DNA from: a virus
Strand: one strand, 5' to 3'
DNA length: 12,895 nucleotides
Virus genome (UHGV): UHGV-0182645
In this document: in pieces, positions 5,527-12,857 of the stretch
Layout: every line of letters starts with the position of its first letter
How positions within the stretch are numbered: the stretch's first letter is position 1
Notes under the pieces: model-generated
The model's input: the letters and a program-made list of their open reading frames with translations, nothing else
The model's database searches: none
What the model was told of the DNA's origin: nothing
Made by a program: the position numbers and the translations under genes

Positions 5527-6255
5527 TCATTTTTTTGAAAGATCAATTCCAGTATTATCAAACAAACTGGAAATATCAGACACCAATTTATTAAAATGCT
5601 TGTCATCATTATAGAATGATGTGCTTTTTATAGCGACTATAAAATCACATAAATCTTGCGGAGATTCAATGCTAACCCCCTTATTTTTATATAGCTCAAT
5701 AATACTGCCAACATCAGTATGCAATAGTTTTATCGCGCCACAAATTTCTCGCTGTTTCGCAACTAGGTCATTAAGTTTATTTTCATTTTCATCTAAGATT
5801 TGTTTTGAATATTTAGCGTCATTGGTTGCTTGATTTAACTTTGTTTTCTTTCTTTGCAATTCTATTCTTTTATCATAATCAGCAACTTCATCTAAATATC
5901 TTATTTCAGTGTATAATTTACTTGTTAGCTTAGATATCTTCAGTGTGAGAATAGGAGCTAACACAGATGCAAATACTCCATAAACAAATGGGATTACAAC
6001 GTGATAAACCCACGGGGATACAATCCAATTATCAAAGAACGGGACATTGCCACCAACAAAAACAATAGATAATGTATATAGGATGTCGTCCTTTGACTTT
6101 AATATAATTAAAATATCCTTCCAGTTAAAAATTAGAAAAGAAATGACAACATATGCAAAAACCTTGTTAAATATTTTATCTTTTATTATTTCAGAAAATG
6201 ATTTTAGTTCTGTTTCATTTATAGACGGATTATCTGTAACTTTTTCTGACATCAT
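5527..6255 (-). CDS. AT-rich membrane protein, 242 aa: two predicted TM segments, a coiled-coil segment and a C-terminal domain; candidate exclusion or abortive-infection effector
   Basis: AGGAT lies 6 nt before ATG 6255. Hydrophobic segments VFAYVVISFLIFNWKDILIIL and VVIPFVYGVFASVLAPILTL, then a charged heptad-like stretch (RIELQRKKTKLNQATNDAKYSKQILDENENKLNDLVAKQ). Hand-counted G+C in sampled 60-nt stretches is about 23-32%, against about 50% in flanking genes. Confidence 0.65.
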   Translation of the reverse strand: MMSEKVTDNPSINETELKSFSEIIKDKIFNKVFAYVVISFLIFNWKDILIILKSKDDILYTLSIVFVGGNVPFFDNWIVSPWVYHVVIPFVYGVFASVLAPILTLKISKLTSKLYTEIRYLDEVADYDKRIELQRKKTKLNQATNDAKYSKQILDENENKLNDLVAKQREICGAIKLLHTDVGSIIELYKNKGVSIESPQDLCDFIVAIKSTSFYNDDKHFNKLVSDISSLFDNTGIDLSKK

Positions 6256-6477: not shown

Positions 6478-6489
6478 TAATTACAAAGG

Positions 6490-6516
6490 AAAGCCCACTT
6501 GCTAAGTGGGCTTTTT
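6490..6516. terminator. bidirectional-capable intrinsic terminator (10-bp stem AAAGCCCACT / AGTGGGCTTT, loop TGCTA)
   Basis: Perfect 10-bp stem. Followed on the plus strand by TTGTATGTGTTTT and on the minus strand by CCUUUGU. Sits 18 nt past the higA stop. Confidence 0.5.
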
Positions 6517-6533
6517 GTATGTGTTTTACTATA

Positions 6534-6872
6534 TCAGGCTGCTTTTTTATTCAGGTTCCGCTGAGAAATAAATTTTTCAGCAGTATTGATACGACTTAAC
6601 TCTTCCTGAACGCGCATATCATTTTCGACTTCCCACAGATCTACTGCGGTCTGAAGATTAATCCAAAAATCTACAGAAGTATCGAATGCTTTTGCCAGGC
6701 GATATGCCATATCCATCGTTAGCTTACGATTATTATTAACAAGAGCACTTACGGTGTTACGATGAACATGAAGTATTTCTGCTAACTCGTTGATCTTCAG
6801 CTCTAACGGCTCCAGGTATTCGTACAGAAGGATATCACCTACGGTCGTCGGTTTTCTGGTTGCCTGTTTCAT
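6534..6872 (-). CDS. higA: HigA-type antitoxin, XRE-family HTH, 112 aa
   Basis: AAGGG lies about 7 nt before ATG 6872. The protein shows the HigA pattern (PGDIL..EYLEPL...INELAEIL.V....VS.L.N....LT.DMA.RL...F..S..FW.NLQ) and lies immediately downstream of the HigB-like toxin gene. Confidence 0.85.
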   Translation of the reverse strand: MKQATRKPTTVGDILLYEYLEPLELKINELAEILHVHRNTVSALVNNNRKLTMDMAYRLAKAFDTSVDFWINLQTAVDLWEVENDMRVQEELSRINTAEKFISQRNLNKKAA

Positions 6873-6942
6873 TTTTTGCCCTTACTAGCGTGCGTATTAA
6901 GTGGACTCTGGTCAGAACCCGGACCGTAACCGGGAATCTGTT

Positions 6943-7245
6943 TTAGTATTTGTGAGGGTCGAGATACAAGTCCTCGGCCTTTCCGTTAACCCACTTAAAA
7001 ATTAACCTATATTGCTTATTCACCCTTACTGATGAATAGCCATTTAGCTTCCCTGACAGTTCCTCATACCGATTACCTGGTGGTGATCTTAAATCCTTAC
7101 AGGTAGTTGCGGCATTGATAATGTCCAACTTCCGTGACAATGTCATATGAATATCAGGAGGTATCTTTCTATGTGGTGTTGAAAATTCAAAAAAATCATC
7201 AAGCCACGCATCCCTGAAATCCTTTATGTTAATTTTTTTGGTCAT
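6943..7245 (-). CDS. higB: HigB-type toxin (RelE/ParE superfamily, killer-protein family), 100 aa
   Basis: C-terminal signature YEELSGKLNGYSSVRVNKQYRLIFKWVNGKAEDLYLDPHKY matches the HigB killer-protein motif (W/YR..F.F.NGDA..L.Y.DYH) from memory. Toxin-first order with the HTH antitoxin downstream. Confidence 0.85.
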   Translation of the reverse strand: MTKKINIKDFRDAWLDDFFEFSTPHRKIPPDIHMTLSRKLDIINAATTCKDLRSPPGNRYEELSGKLNGYSSVRVNKQYRLIFKWVNGKAEDLYLDPHKY

Positions 7246-7284
7246 TAGTCATTTGATCCTCCGTGATGATTACCGAATGCCATA

Positions 7285-7318
7285 ACTATAGCGCACTGTT
7301 GCACTGTGCGCAAGTGCA
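7285..7318 (-). promoter_or_regulatory. putative higBA promoter with overlapping operator-like repeats (-10 TATAGT; GCACTGT x2 plus inverted GTGCA)
   Basis: On the minus strand, TATAGT (plus coords 7285-7290) sits about 40 nt upstream of the higB ATG. Immediately upstream is GCACTGT-T-GCACTGT-GCGCAA-GTGCA (7293-7318), a typical arrangement for autoregulated TA operators. The -35 is weak (TTGCGC). Confidence 0.35.
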
Positions 7319-7407
7319 TTTTATGGATTCCCCCTCCTTCATCCAAAATCACAATCTCCCGAAAATCTTCCTTTCGATACCTGACAGATCGACCTTTGAG
7401 GATGCTT

Positions 7408-8199
7408 ATGGGCCGTTTTGACGAATGGTTTGCTGACGATGCAAACCTGGCAAGTAAGGAGTCAGAACATGACAGCACGCAGAGAGAAACGCCAGCGCCG
7501 ATTGAAGCGAATGCAGGAGGTGCGCCGGAACATGGCAATACCGGTTCGGATTCATTCAGCATTCTGGAAGAGCAACCCGCCGCCAAAGCTGATAGCCATG
7601 ATAATTTTGCTGATAGCAACGCTGGCCTTACTCCGGATGCTGCCGAATCAGATATAGCCATACTTCCACCTTCCCTGGCTGGCAGAGAACCAACTCCACA
7701 GCTAAAAGCACGCTATAACGGGCATAAAGCCTTTAATGACCAAATCCGCGCAGACTGGATGCTGATTATTGAATCCAGCCCAGACGCGTTTCAGGCTCTC
7801 TTATATCGACCAGATGTTGGCACATATGGGGTAGTCAGCGACGAAACAGGAGAAGAGTCATTCACTGAACTGGATAACAACCAACGCGAACTGACTTACC
7901 AGGAACCTGAAATCGTTTATGTGCTGGATAACCCTGACGGGCGTGACTCTTTCCATGCGATTGACGCAGACGGTGAGCAGGATGGCTTAACCGATGATGT
8001 TCTGATTCTGCGTATTGCAGCAAATAACGTCCCCGTCGGCTCAATTCTTGAATGGAATGAAGAGATGGTAAACGGCGTAGCCCGCCGCTGGTGGTACGTG
8101 CACCGTATTTTTAGCTACGGCACACAGCATGTTGGTTCGCTTTACTACTGCATACCTGCCAGGAATTTTGATACGACTCAAAACGGAGTGATCGAATGA
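7408..8199 (+). CDS. hypothetical protein, 263 aa, with an acidic low-complexity N-terminal half; first gene of a four-gene coupled operon
   Basis: GAGG at 7398-7401 lies 6 nt before ATG 7408. The track ORF starts at GTG 7306, but that would run through the divergent higBA promoter. Stop overlaps the next start (ATGA). Confidence 0.65.
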   Translation: MGRFDEWFADDANLASKESEHDSTQRETPAPIEANAGGAPEHGNTGSDSFSILEEQPAAKADSHDNFADSNAGLTPDAAESDIAILPPSLAGREPTPQLKARYNGHKAFNDQIRADWMLIIESSPDAFQALLYRPDVGTYGVVSDETGEESFTELDNNQRELTYQEPEIVYVLDNPDGRDSFHAIDADGEQDGLTDDVLILRIAANNVPVGSILEWNEEMVNGVARRWWYVHRIFSYGTQHVGSLYYCIPARNFDTTQNGVIE

Positions 8200-8963
8200 C
8201 TTCAAATAAAACCCTCCTGGCGCGAACAGGTGAATGGCAAACCTCACGCACAGGAAAATTCCAGACCACGGGCTTTGAAAACGTGGATAACGCGTTTGCG
8301 ACGCTAATCAGCAACATTTTTTCTGATATCTTACTTGTGGCCCCCGCGCCGGAAGAAAAACGCTTTGCGTCATTCCTGAATCGTCCACCAGCAGAGCGTG
8401 TCTATGTGGCCCGTTTCGACAATGCGATCGAGTTTCTTAAAGCAGTACGTCGCGCAAATGCCGGGCAAGGGAGAAAACCTGAAAACCAGAACATTAACCG
8501 GGATGCTCTCCCCCTGGTCAATATCTCACGCACTATGGATATCAATTATATCAACGATGATCAGCAGATTGACCGCAAAAAAGTAGCCAGTTTTTGCGAA
8601 CCGGATACCGGAATGCCTTTAGCAGAACTGGAATACACCCAGGCCATTCTGACGTATGACGTTACGTTAATGGCAACTGATAAAGCGACCATGAGTCTGA
8701 TGTGTAATTCGCTGGGCGCACGGCTTCGCCTGATGACAGGTACACAATTTGAAGCAACCACTCACCTTGTTCGTGTCCCGGTCCCGCTGATTTGCTCGAT
8801 ACAGGATGCCAAAGAAGTCGGCTTTACGGATGTTTCAGCACCAATTGGAGAAGAGCGTATTTATGCCACACAAGCGCCGATAAGTGTGATTGCAGACGTG
8901 ATCACAGCATGGGAGTTGGACGCAAAACGTATTATTACCGAAACCTCGATATCTATGGGGTGA
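8196..8963 (+). CDS. hypothetical protein, 255 aa
   Basis: ATG 8196 overlaps the upstream stop. Continuous coding-like composition. No family recognised. Confidence 0.65.
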   Translation: MTSNKTLLARTGEWQTSRTGKFQTTGFENVDNAFATLISNIFSDILLVAPAPEEKRFASFLNRPPAERVYVARFDNAIEFLKAVRRANAGQGRKPENQNINRDALPLVNISRTMDINYINDDQQIDRKKVASFCEPDTGMPLAELEYTQAILTYDVTLMATDKATMSLMCNSLGARLRLMTGTQFEATTHLVRVPVPLICSIQDAKEVGFTDVSAPIGEERIYATQAPISVIADVITAWELDAKRIITETSISMG

Positions 8964-8966
8964 TAA

Positions 8967-9947
8967 GTGGCCCAGGAGTTACAACAATATTTTCTACAGT
9001 CAGTGCTCATTAACGATAACAAAGTGCCACGAGACTGGATTTTTACCGCAGTATATGTAGAAAAAACCAGCCTCAAAGCCCCTTTGCTAAAACTGGAAAT
9101 TCATGACGCTACCGGCACCGTAATTGATGACTGGAAAGCAAAATACGGTGCATCGCTGGTGGCTGAAATGGGCGATCCAAACGGTAATGCAGGCACTTTT
9201 AAAACAGATTTCTTTGTTACGTCTGCAATGCTGGCTGGTGATGTTGTTACCGTTATTGCTGTCAGTGAAGACGTGCGCAGGTTTAAGATCCCCTCCCCGC
9301 GCACAAATTTACATACCAACAAAACACCAGACGCTATATTCAAGGCATATTCCGGCAAGCTTAAAATTACCAGCAGCGTGCTAAAACGCGCAGTTACATA
9401 TCATCTGAATGCCGGTGACAAACCGTCAAAAATGCTCTCGCAGATAGCGCGAGACAAAGGTGCATTATGTTGGGTATGCCGTGGGGAATTTAACTTTTAC
9501 ACCCTGGCTGATCTGATGAAGCAAACGCCATCATTTACCTACGAGGGGAATAACCCTAAAGCAGAATACACTTTGTCCAAAATGCGCCTACTCCAACAGG
9601 AACATGCGACAACAGCAAAGAATCAATATCGTTTTGTTGGGTATTCCATGACCGATGGCTACGTCGAATATGGCGATAGCTCACTCCCAGTGCGTTATAT
9701 ATCCGACTCTGATATGGAAACTCTTCGCAATATGCAGCTGTCTCTCGTCCCCAAAATGGATATAGAAGTCGCAGGCAATCCGGATATAAAACCGGGAATG
9801 GTAATAGAGATTATCGTATACCGCTATGACCAGGAAAACCGCATTGATGAATCAATGCCCCGCAAGCTGATAGTAAAAAATGTTGCGCACTTTGAAGACC
9901 GCGTAGGCTACACAACACGAATGATATTAGGAGTGCCGAACAAATGA
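8967..9947 (+). CDS. hypothetical protein, 326 aa (GTG start); possibly a structural or baseplate-associated protein by position
   Basis: GTG 8967 with GGGGTGA upstream, 3 nt after the previous stop. Its stop overlaps the next start (ATGA). A functional guess rests only on adjacency to the spike-like gene. Confidence 0.6.
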   Translation: MAQELQQYFLQSVLINDNKVPRDWIFTAVYVEKTSLKAPLLKLEIHDATGTVIDDWKAKYGASLVAEMGDPNGNAGTFKTDFFVTSAMLAGDVVTVIAVSEDVRRFKIPSPRTNLHTNKTPDAIFKAYSGKLKITSSVLKRAVTYHLNAGDKPSKMLSQIARDKGALCWVCRGEFNFYTLADLMKQTPSFTYEGNNPKAEYTLSKMRLLQQEHATTAKNQYRFVGYSMTDGYVEYGDSSLPVRYISDSDMETLRNMQLSLVPKMDIEVAGNPDIKPGMVIEIIVYRYDQENRIDESMPRKLIVKNVAHFEDRVGYTTRMILGVPNK

Positions 9948-10597
9948 AGCGTAGAGCGCAAATTGTTGGAACTGTGCACCCGGCAGGGCTTATGCGTGCT
10001 CAGGTCCGTGTTTTACCAGACTGGAATGGCGTTCCTGATGACGATCTACCCTGGGCAGAATACCTGTTACCCATAGGTAACGCGTTTGTACCTACAGTAA
10101 AAGGCGACCTGGTATGGGTAGAGTTTCCTTATCTGGATGTTAATGGTCGAATTGATACCAGACGCCCAATGATAGTTGGCGCAGCTCAGGATGCGCCTGG
10201 CGGAGTACCAAACGTCGCGCCGGAGGCGTCAGGCAATGGTAGCGGCTGGACGCCACCAGAAGTAGACGGAGCGCCTCCCCGCCCGCAATTTTCGGCGACA
10301 AAAGATTTCGTGATTCACCGCAACAATGTGCTCGAAGTGCGAACGGCTGGCGGTGGATATGAAATAGCGAATACGGCAGCAGGCTCAAGGATTGGAATGA
10401 ATGAATCAGGGCAGATATACATCATTGGTCCGGCTGATGTAGTAGTGAATGCGGGAGGGAGTGTTAACGTCAAATCAGCCGATAACATCAGCGTTAATGG
10501 CAAAAACATTACTGTGACAGCCGACGAAAATATTGATTTCAAGGCTGGAGGCACCTTCCAGGCTATCGCAAGCAACTTTGATTTCAAGAAGGGATAG
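9944..10597 (+). CDS. gp5/gpV-type spike-like protein (N-terminal OB-fold signature, C-terminal repetitive beta-rich segment), 217 aa
   Basis: N-terminus AQIVGTVHPAGLMRAQVRVLPDW...LPWAEYLLPIGNAFVPTVKGDLVWVEFPY...RRPMIVGA lines up by eye with P2 gpV (GIIVETDLNAGRCRVQT..TDWLQWL...PSVGEQVLIL...FVLPGIY). C-terminus is G/N/V-rich (VVVNAGGSVNVKSADNISVNGKNITVTADENIDFKAGG). Not search-verified. Confidence 0.5.
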   Translation: MKRRAQIVGTVHPAGLMRAQVRVLPDWNGVPDDDLPWAEYLLPIGNAFVPTVKGDLVWVEFPYLDVNGRIDTRRPMIVGAAQDAPGGVPNVAPEASGNGSGWTPPEVDGAPPRPQFSATKDFVIHRNNVLEVRTAGGGYEIANTAAGSRIGMNESGQIYIIGPADVVVNAGGSVNVKSADNISVNGKNITVTADENIDFKAGGTFQAIASNFDFKKG

Positions 10598-10606
10598 AAA
10601 ACACAT

Positions 10607-10650
10607 CCAATTGTGTTAGATAATTGAATAGAATTTTCTAACACAATTGG
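10607..10650. repeat. perfect 14-bp inverted repeat (CCAATTGTGTTAGA ... TCTAACACAATTGG) with a 16-bp AT-rich spacer, just upstream of rdgC
   Basis: Exact reverse complements at 10607-10620 and 10637-10650. The right arm overlaps the rdgC ribosome-binding region (GGTGA at 10649-10653). Confidence 0.6.
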
Positions 10651-10656
10651 TGAAAC

Positions 10657-11562
10657 ATGAGATCAGTCGCTTTCAAAAACATCTTCATCTATCGTCTTTC
10701 ACGTGAAGTTAACTGGAGTGCCGCAGAAGTATCCGATGCTCTTAGCAAATTCGTGTTTACTCCTTGCGGTTCTCAGGACACAGCTAAAGTCGGTTGGACA
10801 CCTGTTCTTGGTGACAACCTCACCCATGAATACCAGGGTTTTCTGCTAATACAGCATAAGCGAGAAGAAAAAATTCTCCCCTCGCAGGTGCTCAAGGAAG
10901 AGTTGCAGAAAAAAGTCCTGAAACTCGAAGAAGAGCAAGCCCGCAAGCTGAAGAAAACGGAAAGAGACAGTCTTAAAGATGAAGTCCTGCATTCACTTTT
11001 GCCTCGCGCGTTCACGAGAAAATCACTCGCCAAAATCCTGATCGACCGCAGCAACCATCTGGTATTCGTTGAGGCAAGCAGCGCCAAAAAGGCAGAGGAC
11101 CAGCTGGCTTTATTGCGAAAGTCGCTCGGCAGCCTGCCTGTCATTCCATTCACACCACGCGAACCGCTGGAAATTACAATGACCGAGTGGTTTAAAAGCG
11201 GCTTCCCTGCCGGATTTACAGCAGGTGAAGACGCCACATTAAAGGGTCTGCTCGATAATGGTGGTGCCGTTCGCTGCAACAAAGTTGATCTACAGTCCGA
11301 CGAGATTATGTCTCACATTGAGGCGGGGAAAGTAGCTACGACCGTTGCAATTAACTGGATGGACCGTGCGTCGTTCAGAGTCAACGATGATATGAGTATC
11401 AAAGCCCTGACATTCTGTGATGATCTCTATGACCAGAACGACGATATCGACCGGGAGGATGTAGCACAACGATTTGATGCTGATTTCGTGCTCTTTACGG
11501 GCGAATTATCTGCACTGTTTAACGCGCTGGTGGAGGCCATTGGCGGTGAAGCAGAACGATAA
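10657..11562 (+). CDS. rdgC: recombination-associated protein RdgC homolog, 301 aa
   Basis: Near-colinear by-eye match to E. coli RdgC over the full length, for example [94 protein letters not shown] and GGEA. GGTGA lies 4 nt before the ATG. Confidence 0.9.
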
Positions 11563-11578
11563 TAACCGACCGCTTGTT

Positions 11579-12226
11579 GTGAGTCTTTGTGATTTTACGG
11601 GGGCAATGGTTGCCCCCTGGCTGGAATACGGTGTCGATGCCGCTATCGTCGATCCACAGCACTTATCGACCAGTGACGAGCGGATGCAATCAGGTGCCGT
11701 TCTGACGCGTATTAGTGCGATCATCGATAGCGATGAAGTATACGCTTTTCTCCGTAAGAATTTGCAGCGCATCGTGTTTCTGGCCGGGTTCCCACCGTGT
11801 ACTGACCTGGCTGTTTCCGGCGCGCGCTGGTTTTCGGACAAGGCTAATAAAGATCCGGTTTTCCAGTTCAAAGCAATGCAGGTTGTCTGGCAGTGTTATG
11901 ACATTGCAAAGATGATCGGTTGTCCGTACATGATTGAAAATCCGGTCAGCAAAATATCGACATTCTGGCGTAAGCCAGATCACATCTTTCACCCTTACTT
12001 CTTCACTGCATATTGTCAGGAAGATAACTACACCAAAAAAACATGCCTCTGGAGCGGCCAGGGCTTTGTCATGCCTGATGCCCTAATGGACGAATCATTA
12101 GGCAAGCCAGATAACAGAATCCATGCCGCGCCACCAGGGCCTGACAGGGCTAATTTCCGAAGTGCTACTCCACATGGATTCGCAAAGGCAGTTTTCGAAG
12201 CGAATAAGGGGGTGCTCTATGAGTAA
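11579..12226 (+). CDS. compact C5-cytosine-methyltransferase-like protein (motif I-like, PPC in place of PCQ, ENP in place of ENV, C-terminal motif-X-like), about 215 aa; start uncertain
   Basis: VVSLCDFTGAMVAPWLEYGVDAAIVD resembles motif I of C5-MTases, FLAGFPPCTDLAVSG resembles motif IV (GFPCQ.FS.SG), and YMIENPVS resembles motif VI. There is no room for a normal target-recognition domain. I chose GTG 11579 to retain motif I without overlapping rdgC; ATG 11606 and ATG 11474 are alternatives. Confidence 0.5.
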   Translation: MSLCDFTGAMVAPWLEYGVDAAIVDPQHLSTSDERMQSGAVLTRISAIIDSDEVYAFLRKNLQRIVFLAGFPPCTDLAVSGARWFSDKANKDPVFQFKAMQVVWQCYDIAKMIGCPYMIENPVSKISTFWRKPDHIFHPYFFTAYCQEDNYTKKTCLWSGQGFVMPDALMDESLGKPDNRIHAAPPGPDRANFRSATPHGFAKAVFEANKGVLYE

Positions 12227-12857
12227 ATCTATAGCAAGCATAGCCATAGAAAAACAGGATACGATGGCTGAAATTAGCTATATGCGCACCATTCGGACTC
12301 CGGATGAATATGAGCGTCCGATATTCAAATGGGTAGGTGGTAAATTCTCAGAATTGCCTACAGTGCTTGAGCATCTACCACACGGTAAGCGGTTAATAGA
12401 ACCATTCGTTGGTGGCGGTTCCGTATTTACGAATGCAGGATTTCGCCACAACCTGCTTAATGATATTAACGGTGACCTGATTAACTTCTATCAGACATTG
12501 CAGCGAGAAGGACATTCGCTCGTCACGCTGTCATATAGTTTTTTCAAAAATTACAACAACGCTGACGCTTACCTCGAAGTGCGTGAGGCATTTAACAGAG
12601 GAAAATATGACCAGCTACATCATGCTGCCGCATTTTTGTACCTTAATCGTCACTGTTTTAATGGCGTAACGCGGTACAACCAAAATGGCGAGTTCAACGT
12701 GGGGTATGGCAAATACAAAGCGCCCTACTTCCCACATGCAGAGATGGAGGCATTTTTGGCTGATGACGTACTCAAAAACACTTCCTTTGTATCAGGAGAC
12801 TTTGCTAGCGTCATCGAGGCAGCTGGTGCATCCGACGCCGATTTTGTGTACCGATAA
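12219..12857 (+). pseudogene. Dam-family (D12 class) N6-adenine methyltransferase-like ORF, apparently truncated just before the catalytic DPPY motif
   Basis: Colinear by-eye match to E. coli Dam from FKWVGGK through EPFVGGGSVF, LNDINGDLINFY, FLYLNRHCFNGVTRYNQNGEFNVGYGKYKAPYFPHAEMEAF to ...ASDADFVYR, then TAA at 12855-12857. In Dam the equivalent position reads ...DASVVYCDPPY. AAGGGGG lies 6 nt before ATG 12219; ATG 12264 is an alternative start. None of the three frames after the stop encodes DPPY within the remaining 38 nt. Confidence 0.65.

Follow-up and report, generated by a model that had tools for sequence, protein, structure and literature searches.

In bacteriophage P1, 22 dispersed sites are bound by the master repressor C1, and their operator sequence is asymmetric and 17 bp long (ATTGCTCTAATAAATTT; PMC8546580). 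The site Odmt (Op68), with the promoter Pdmt, controls the uhr-hrdC-dmt genes; it is a single site lying upstream of the -35 box, about 70 bp before uhr. At Obanab (Op72ab) and Oc1ab (Op99ab), opposite-strand copies with their A/T-rich ends in the centre form an imperfect palindrome over the promoter, and the two 17-mers of such a bivalent pair are offset by 11 bp within a continuous 28-bp palindrome. Inverted repeats can also act as RNA. In the insertion sequences IS10 and IS50, fold-back of read-through transcripts protects the transposase genes from outside transcription. In IS200, a 5' stem-loop sequesters the Shine-Dalgarno (SD) sequence (PMC4513863).

The stretch of DNA analyzed here (12,895 nucleotides, hereafter the window) carries an inverted repeat directly before an rdgC gene. 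Judged from its sequence and position, this repeat is probably the positional and functional analogue of P1 Odmt (Op68) with Pdmt. The P1 C1 operators used for comparison were taken from the annotation of the P1 RefSeq record.

The inverted repeat and its genomic setting

The repeat occupies positions 10607-10650, between the TAG stop codon of the ORF at 9944-10597 and the ATG of rdgC at 10657. Its arms, CCAATTGTGTTAGA at 10607-10620 and the exact reverse complement at 10637-10650, are perfect over 14 bp and enclose a spacer of 16 bp; these coordinates, reported in a first-pass annotation of the sequence, were verified. The repeat finder extended the arms inward to 19 nt (10607-10625 and 10632-10650) with 1 mismatch and a 6-nt loop. 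A search of the whole window found no longer inverted repeat, and the longest perfect arm in Markov-1 simulated windows (n = 40) was at most 11 bp, compared with the 14 bp observed. RNA fold prediction, which the first-pass annotation had proposed as a check, gave -27.5 kcal/mol (z = -5.3) for the + strand of 10585-10675; the minus strand of the same region folded at -25.0 kcal/mol.

Several details of the earlier description needed adjustment. The right arm was said to include the rdgC SD (GGTGA, 10649-10653), and only its two G's (10649-10650) lie in the arm, with the remainder outside. The ribosome-binding region thus delimited (10649-10659, + strand) ends with the ATG at 10657-10659, and the hairpin ends 6 nt from this ATG. 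The self-palindrome CAATTG noted in each arm is present here, but it is not conserved (phage D6 has CATTTG) and is incidental. The full 14-mer, of which further copies were sought, is single in both the window and the plasmid described below, whereas its inner part, TGTGTTAGA, is found together with an A/T-rich tail at about 17 places in the element.

Over positions 9900-11600, the window matches several non-mobilizable E. coli plasmids of ~90 kb, e.g. pLD93-1-90kb (NZ_CP047663), with 100% identity. Its identity to phage D6, itself a plasmid prophage related to P1, is 90.5% over this region. By this sequence identity, the window is assigned to a D6-like, P1-related phage-plasmid. The gene upstream of the repeat (9944-10597, + strand) encodes a baseplate protein homologous to that of P1 gene 5 (PHROG 430; D6 annotation), and according to the D6 annotation it closes a block of co-directional tail/baseplate genes, the homologues of P1 genes 7, 24, 6, and 5 (about 7306-10597). 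Downstream, the D6 annotation lists hrdC (RdgC family), a putative cytosine methylase, and a Dam methylase, and the Pfam and PHROG assignments are concordant. The first gene of this operon, rdgC (10657-11562, + strand), matches Pfam RdgC with E = 5e-103, and its D6 counterpart, D6_65, is annotated as "similar to P1 gene hrdC". It is followed by a methyltransferase-like ORF (11606-12226, + strand; PHROG 757), a homologue of D6_64 and putative DNA-cytosine methylase whose true start may be further upstream, and by a Dam-type adenine methylase ORF homologous to the C-terminal half of P1 dmt (12219-12857, + strand, also given as 12123-12857; stop at 12857). The tail/baseplate genes and the rdgC-operon genes all lie on the + strand of the window, and the terminator scan detected no terminator-like sites on the + strand of 10597-10657.

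Other features of the window and of its relatives were recorded along with this arrangement. The Dam-type ORF is about 90 codons shorter than the 301-aa protein of D6, and its counterpart in pLD93-1-90kb is flagged as a pseudogene; by sequence, the operon's methylase may be defective in this lineage. Just beyond the window, D6-like phage-plasmids carry glnS, a full-length glutaminyl-tRNA synthetase gene (41098-42759 of pLD93-1-90kb, L001; D6_62 in D6), which converges on the dam end of the rdgC operon. A RelE/HigB-HigA toxin-antitoxin pair (6534-7245, minus strand) and a further ORF at 5527-6255, both on the opposite strand, intervene between the tail-gene homologues of P1 25 and 7. This tail operon is uninterrupted in P1; here it is split by the inserted genes, so a separate promoter would be needed upstream of gene 7 (about 7246-7305). 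Between converging genes at 6488-6516 lies a strong, bidirectional hairpin that resembles a terminator, with a 13-bp stem, GGAAAGCCCACTT...AAGTGGGCTTTTT. At the left end of the window, an isrK-like RNA (402-481, + strand; Rfam RF01394, 60 bits) and a C4 antisense RNA (505-592, + strand; Rfam RF01695, 75 bits) were detected; the C4 RNA is followed by an icd-like ORF (646-861) and an anti-repressor ORF (861-1802), forming a module of the P1 immI type (c4-icd-ant). The anti-repressor ORF contains another inverted repeat at 979-1007, TTCAATTTCCTCAA T TTGAGGAAATTGAA, whose perfect 14-bp arms flank a single central nucleotide and are as long as the arms of the rdgC repeat. An exact 11-bp direct repeat, TTGATTTCAAG, is found at the 3' end of the baseplate gene (10533-10543 and 10578-10588, 45 bp apart) and probably reflects a repeated peptide motif (...DFKA.../...DFKK...).

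A dispersed motif and its P1 counterparts

An asymmetric motif, T(G/A)TGTTAGAAAAyTAATTT, is present once in each arm of the repeat. To derive it, the 14-mer was searched against the whole plasmid with mismatches allowed, and anchoring on TGTTAGA then gave 16 aligned sites. At a position weight matrix (PWM) score of at least 15, pLD93-1-90kb contains 17 sites, compared with 0.33 expected from shuffled sequences, and TGTTAGAAA occurs 13 times in this plasmid against an expectation of about 0.7. The PWM was trained on the same sites, making this enrichment partly circular; the fairer test is the independent D6 genome, where the scan returned the same set of sites at the same positions. Most copies in the element are single and asymmetric. 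Converging pairs occur three times per D6-like genome, before rdgC/hrdC, before ref, and before a pdcB homologue, and all share the geometry TGTTAGA-N16-TCTAACA. In the window, the PWM scan found only two sites, which are the two arms of the repeat.

The left copy, a predicted D6-type C1 operator, is TGTGTTAGATAATTGAATA at 10612-10630 on the + strand (PWM score 22.4). The ATTG that leads into it (10609-10611 plus T10612) parallels the one with which the P1 consensus starts. The right copy, likewise predicted, is TGTGTTAGAAAATTCTATT at 10627-10645 on the minus strand (PWM score 23.1) and converges on the left copy.

Relatives were gathered through the RdgC protein, which yielded 27 viral contigs, and through the core pattern in metagenomes; a scan of genome contigs for RdgC relatives confirmed none. 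The left operator core is kept in all relatives but L023, where it has decayed, and TTTTCTAACA in the right copy is invariant in 16/16 aligned variants, L023 included. The operator cores together with a GATAAT hexamer are invariant among rdgC homologues down to 79% identity, and the right copy and GATAAT are still present at 67% identity. The matches of the core-pattern scan in metagenomes came mostly from an unrelated soil family at AbiEi-type antitoxin promoters. This soil and rhizosphere family comprises L040:4589-4617 and about 25 other metagenome loci (L034-L088) with the same TGTTAGATAAT-N-TTTTTCTAACA inverted repeat. Its consensus, gctcctgtc-TGTTAGATAATAGCATGGTTTTTTCTAACA-agctATG, lies directly 5' of a DUF6088/AbiEi-type antitoxin gene adjoining a relaxase gene. 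The soil-family repeat is probably the auto-operator of the antitoxin, and its likeness to the D6 operator pair looks like a coincidence.

The dispersed D6-type sites occupy places that match those of P1 C1 operators. They lie before icd-ant (Oc4/Op51 in P1), before repL (OrepL/Op53), before ref (Oref), over the ref 3' end (Omat), before lpa (Olpa/Op94), before c1 (Oc1ab), before pmgS (OpmgRa/b), near pmgM (O26/Oppp), and adjoining the cre homologue (Oc1e). The site before hrdC-dmt matches Odmt/Op68 with Pdmt, which in P1 precedes uhr-hrdC-dmt. A C1 homologue is also present, encoded by a 345-aa ORF convergent with pacB; it was matched to P1 C1 by BLASTP with E = 7e-8 and a weak 20% identity over 239 aa. 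Its D6 counterpart, D6_1, was annotated by the D6 depositors as a "prophage repressor, similar to P1 C1", and one copy of the motif lies 12 bp before the gene of the C1 homologue.

The specificity of the sites differs from that of P1. With up to 3 mismatches allowed, ATTGCTCTAATAAATTT has 14 matches in half of P1 and 0 in D6 or pLD93, and the D6 consensus has 14-15 matches in D6-like elements and 0 in P1. The two consensus sequences are thus mutually exclusive, as expected for hetero-immune relatives. The repeat is therefore likely to belong to the broader class of C1-type operators, with a specificity of its own, and not to be a P1-immunity operator. Only about 10-11 of the 17 positions of the P1 operator consensus are matched by the arms.

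From the motif family, its dispersal, the synteny with P1, the conservation of the sites, and the presence of a C1 homologue, we infer that the repeat represents a bivalent operator of the D6 C1 type, made of two converging asymmetric sites for the prophage master repressor. We consider this reading highly probable. The first-pass annotation had proposed a symmetric site for a dimeric regulator, and the idea of a protein-binding site is upheld in spirit; the unit, however, is an asymmetric putative operator of about 19 bp of the P1 C1 type, present here as two converging copies and elsewhere mostly as single ones. A symmetric dimeric regulator unrelated to prophage immunity would agree with the perfect dyad symmetry. 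We rejected it on the grounds that most motif copies are single and asymmetric and that the symmetric outer bases lack sequence conservation. The late-promoter (Lpa) -22 box of P1, AACAAATGACT, which lies 9 bp before the -10 box in P1, is unlike the arms, has no good match at the repeat, and was rejected as well; either of these identities is extremely improbable.

The assignment of this repressor to this motif comes from comparative genomics. The homologue resembles P1 C1 only weakly (20% identity), the two copies are spaced differently from a P1 pair (34 bp vs 28 bp), and the partial match of the arms to the P1 consensus likewise counts against the operator reading. The operators are not annotated in the D6 GenBank record, and nothing relevant to D6 operators or to the motif string was found in the literature searched, which did not extend to Gilcrease & Casjens 2018 on the D6 genome or Lobocka 2004 on that of P1. 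The D6 operator consensus may be unpublished.

The predicted promoter and the outer arms

The promoter scan placed a -35 hexamer TAGAAA (10595-10600) and, after an 18-bp spacer, a -10 hexamer GATAAT (10619-10624) on the + strand, giving a predicted promoter of the rdgC operon at 10595-10624; hits of this kind were no commoner across the window than in shuffled sequences. Support for GATAAT comes from its invariance in 16/16 distinct relatives aligned, including L023 with its decayed left operator, and ordinary single operators have GAAAAy where the rdgC site has GATAAT. The -35 hexamer is weak. It was placed by consensus match only, its spacer is 18 bp, and it overlaps the upstream TAG stop codon, which weighs against this part of the operator model. 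The A-run 3' of the upstream stop is conserved; A10-A12 did not vary in alignment A1. Given where the -10 box lies, transcription is predicted to start in a zone at 10629-10633 (+ strand), in the hairpin loop. A start about 7 nt past the -10 box, near 10631, would give a native leader of about 26 nt that contains the right arm only.

In the proposed mechanism, a sigma-70 promoter of the rdgC(hrdC)-dcm-dam operon would lie under the operator pair, with the left copy over the -10 box GATAAT and the right copy over about +1 to +15. The repressor would be the 345-aa C1 homologue encoded beside pacB, binding both copies. In the plasmid-prophage state, the bound repressor would shut the rdgC(hrdC)-dcm-dam operon off, and loss of the repressor would turn it on.

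The operator reading alone does not account for the outer bases of the arms, which stay complementary in four lineages that differ in sequence. The outer 5-7 bp (10607-10613 and 10644-10650) lie beyond the informative operator core and covary among lineages. The outer 5-9 bp read CCAATTG/CAATTGG, CCATTTG/CAAATGG (D6), GCAAAACTG/CAGTTTTGC, and TTCAATG/CATTGGA in the four lineages, and in each case they pair. Across 22 unique haplotypes, 143 of 154 outer pairs (93%) were Watson-Crick, compared with 22-47% when the partner was slid; the haplotypes are related by descent, and these pair counts are not independent events. Pairs were counted with a core-anchored script, as the MAFFT alignment A1 misregistered the lineage-C arms (gap at column 58). 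Each of the outer positions 3-7 showed at least 2 pair types, and at outer position 1 the G-C, G-T, and A-T states were all observed. Among wobbles, 8 haplotypes carried G-T pairs fitting the + strand RNA and 1 carried A-C. Since the outer arms are complementary although they lie outside the operator core, something beyond repressor binding seems to keep the palindrome.

Energy calculations indicated what a hairpin would do to the ribosome site. In the window, opening the region from -14 to +5 was calculated to cost 16.1 kcal/mol in a read-through RNA and 5.4 kcal/mol in an RNA from the predicted start. In lineages A-C, the cost was 13-20 kcal/mol for read-through and 2.6-6.5 kcal/mol from the predicted start, and in L029 the effect was small (7.4 vs 5.2 kcal/mol). 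In four lineages, 5-9 nt lie between the stem and the ATG, and the arms are about 14-16 bp long. Lineage C has no recognizable Shine-Dalgarno sequence, and in L023 the repeat is absent. The bivalent operators of ref and pdcB lack extended arms; their hairpins are predicted at about -13 kcal/mol, compared with -22.7 kcal/mol at rdgC, and their distances to the start codon are 47 and 83 nt, compared with 6 nt at rdgC. No Rfam family reached its gathering threshold at the repeat; the matches were to generic miRNA-precursor hairpins at about 17-20 bits, against thresholds of at least 47.

Alternative readings and comparison with known systems

Compatible with the operator, and possibly a second layer on it, is the reading that the full repeat is also selected as a + strand RNA hairpin, which we give somewhat less than an even chance. 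Late tail/baseplate transcripts would run into rdgC, where no terminator intervenes, and would carry both arms, forming a stem of 14-19 bp that would block 30S binding at rdgC and/or act as a stable 3' barrier for the tail mRNA. An mRNA from the internal, repressor-controlled promoter would lack the left arm and be translatable. The four lineages with different outer sequences, the 143/154 Watson-Crick pairs, and the several pair types per position argue for this layer, as do the + strand direction of the wobbles (8 G-T vs 1 A-C), the weak information of the outer bases in the operator motif, the missing extension at ref and pdcB, and opening costs in lineages A-C that are far above those from the predicted start. 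SD-sequestering hairpins are, moreover, established for IS200 (PMC4513863). Set against this, the start site is itself a prediction, lineage C has no SD to hide, L029 shows a small effect, and L023 lacks the repeat. Covariation is also possible in a DNA palindrome without selection, the wobble bias could stem from strand-biased C-to-T mutation, haplotypes that share descent do not give independent counts, and late read-through expression of Dam might be useful and not harmful. The original proposal that an RNA stem sequesters the SD survives in part: the outer-arm covariation supports it, but GATAAT predicts a start in the loop that would leave the operon's own mRNA without the left arm, confining the hairpin to read-through.

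The complementary outer arms could also be a neutral by-product of the repeat, with repressor binding as its sole function. Template-switch "correction" of quasi-palindromes is an established mutational mechanism, and template switching or intrastrand repair would copy one arm from the other so that the flanks drift and stay symmetric. Exact Watson-Crick symmetry with lineage-specific sequences, as observed, is what this would give. It is nevertheless rather unlikely. The bivalent operators of ref and pdcB share the cores and spacing of the rdgC pair but lack extended arms, arm-copying does not predict wobble intermediates with an 8:1 strand bias, and the arm length is held at about 14-16 bp with the end always 5-9 nt from the ATG. 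Still less probable is a role as a minus-strand terminator or as a + strand RNase III or 3'-end stabilizer site dividing the tail mRNA from the rdgC operon. On the minus strand, AUGUGUUUUCUAUCC comes after the stem, an extended fold brings UUUU against the helix, and a 14 + 4 bp stem approaches the length of RNase III substrates; the A-run 3' of the stop codon, conserved in relatives, would fit termination or processing but is equally explicable as a -35/UP region. The U-rich tract that the first-pass annotation placed on the minus-strand side is indeed there, although it begins 5 nt past the stem and no gene on the minus strand has its end at this place; the closest gene that converges, glnS in relatives, is about 2.5 kb off, past dam. 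On the + strand no U-tract follows the stem, in keeping with the earlier judgment that this is not a classical terminator, and the terminator scan was negative here on both strands. Such a role would also leave the same core motif, present as single copies at 14 other promoters, unaccounted for.

Combining the operator with the RNA hairpin, we tentatively propose one 44-bp palindrome with two jobs, a DNA double operator and an RNA hairpin that would silence rdgC translation in read-through transcripts only. This model is a little more doubtful than the hairpin layer as such. It would mean that rdgC is expressed only when its own de-repressed promoter fires, and that at least 5 lineage-specific double substitutions kept the outer arms complementary, both of which we hold with the same reserve. 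Most likely, the rdgC operator pair belongs to a common type of phage control site; what sets it apart is that the outer arms also stay complementary, as if an RNA hairpin mattered too.

The operator reading provides a likely operator sequence and regulon map for the D6 group of phage-plasmids. D6-type elements are common in both E. coli and Salmonella; the collections searched contained about 100 complete plasmids of this group, and the GenBank/RefSeq records of these elements carry no operator annotation. Distinct operator specificities would explain why D6 and P1 should be hetero-immune, and the RdgC/methylase operon is predicted to be early and repressor-controlled, as in P1. If the RNA layer is true, a compact palindrome would be read at both the DNA and the RNA level and would insulate an early operon from late read-through. 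These results extend the P1 paradigm to a diverged relative and do not overturn current understanding.

Compared with P1, the D6-type sites share the character of dispersed, asymmetric, A/T-rich master-repressor sites, one of them at the promoter of an operon for an RdgC homologue and Dam (Odmt/Pdmt in P1), and the remaining sites are syntenic with those of the C1 regulon at icd-ant, repL, ref, mat, lpa, c1, and pmgRS. The specificities differ, with T(G/A)TGTTAGAAAAyTAATTT in D6-type elements and ATTGCTCTAATAAATTT in P1 and no cross-matches, and so do the repressors, of 345 aa and 283 aa, with 20% identity. Unlike the single Odmt site, the D6-type site consists of two converging copies over the predicted -10 box and start, ends 6 nt before rdgC, and has no uhr. 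In its pair of converging copies it resembles Obanab and Oc1ab, whose copies likewise lie on opposite strands; the D6-type pairs are offset by 15 bp (TGTTAGA-N16-TCTAACA, 34 bp from outer TG to CA) and have a non-palindromic, lineage-variable centre. With IS10/IS50 and IS200, the locus shares an inverted repeat beside a ribosome site, and here the upstream arm is predicted to lie 5' of the operon's own start, so that only read-through RNA would fold. Unlike those elements, the locus is not a transposon, its arms double as predicted operators, and its overlap with the SD is 2 nt here and none in one lineage.
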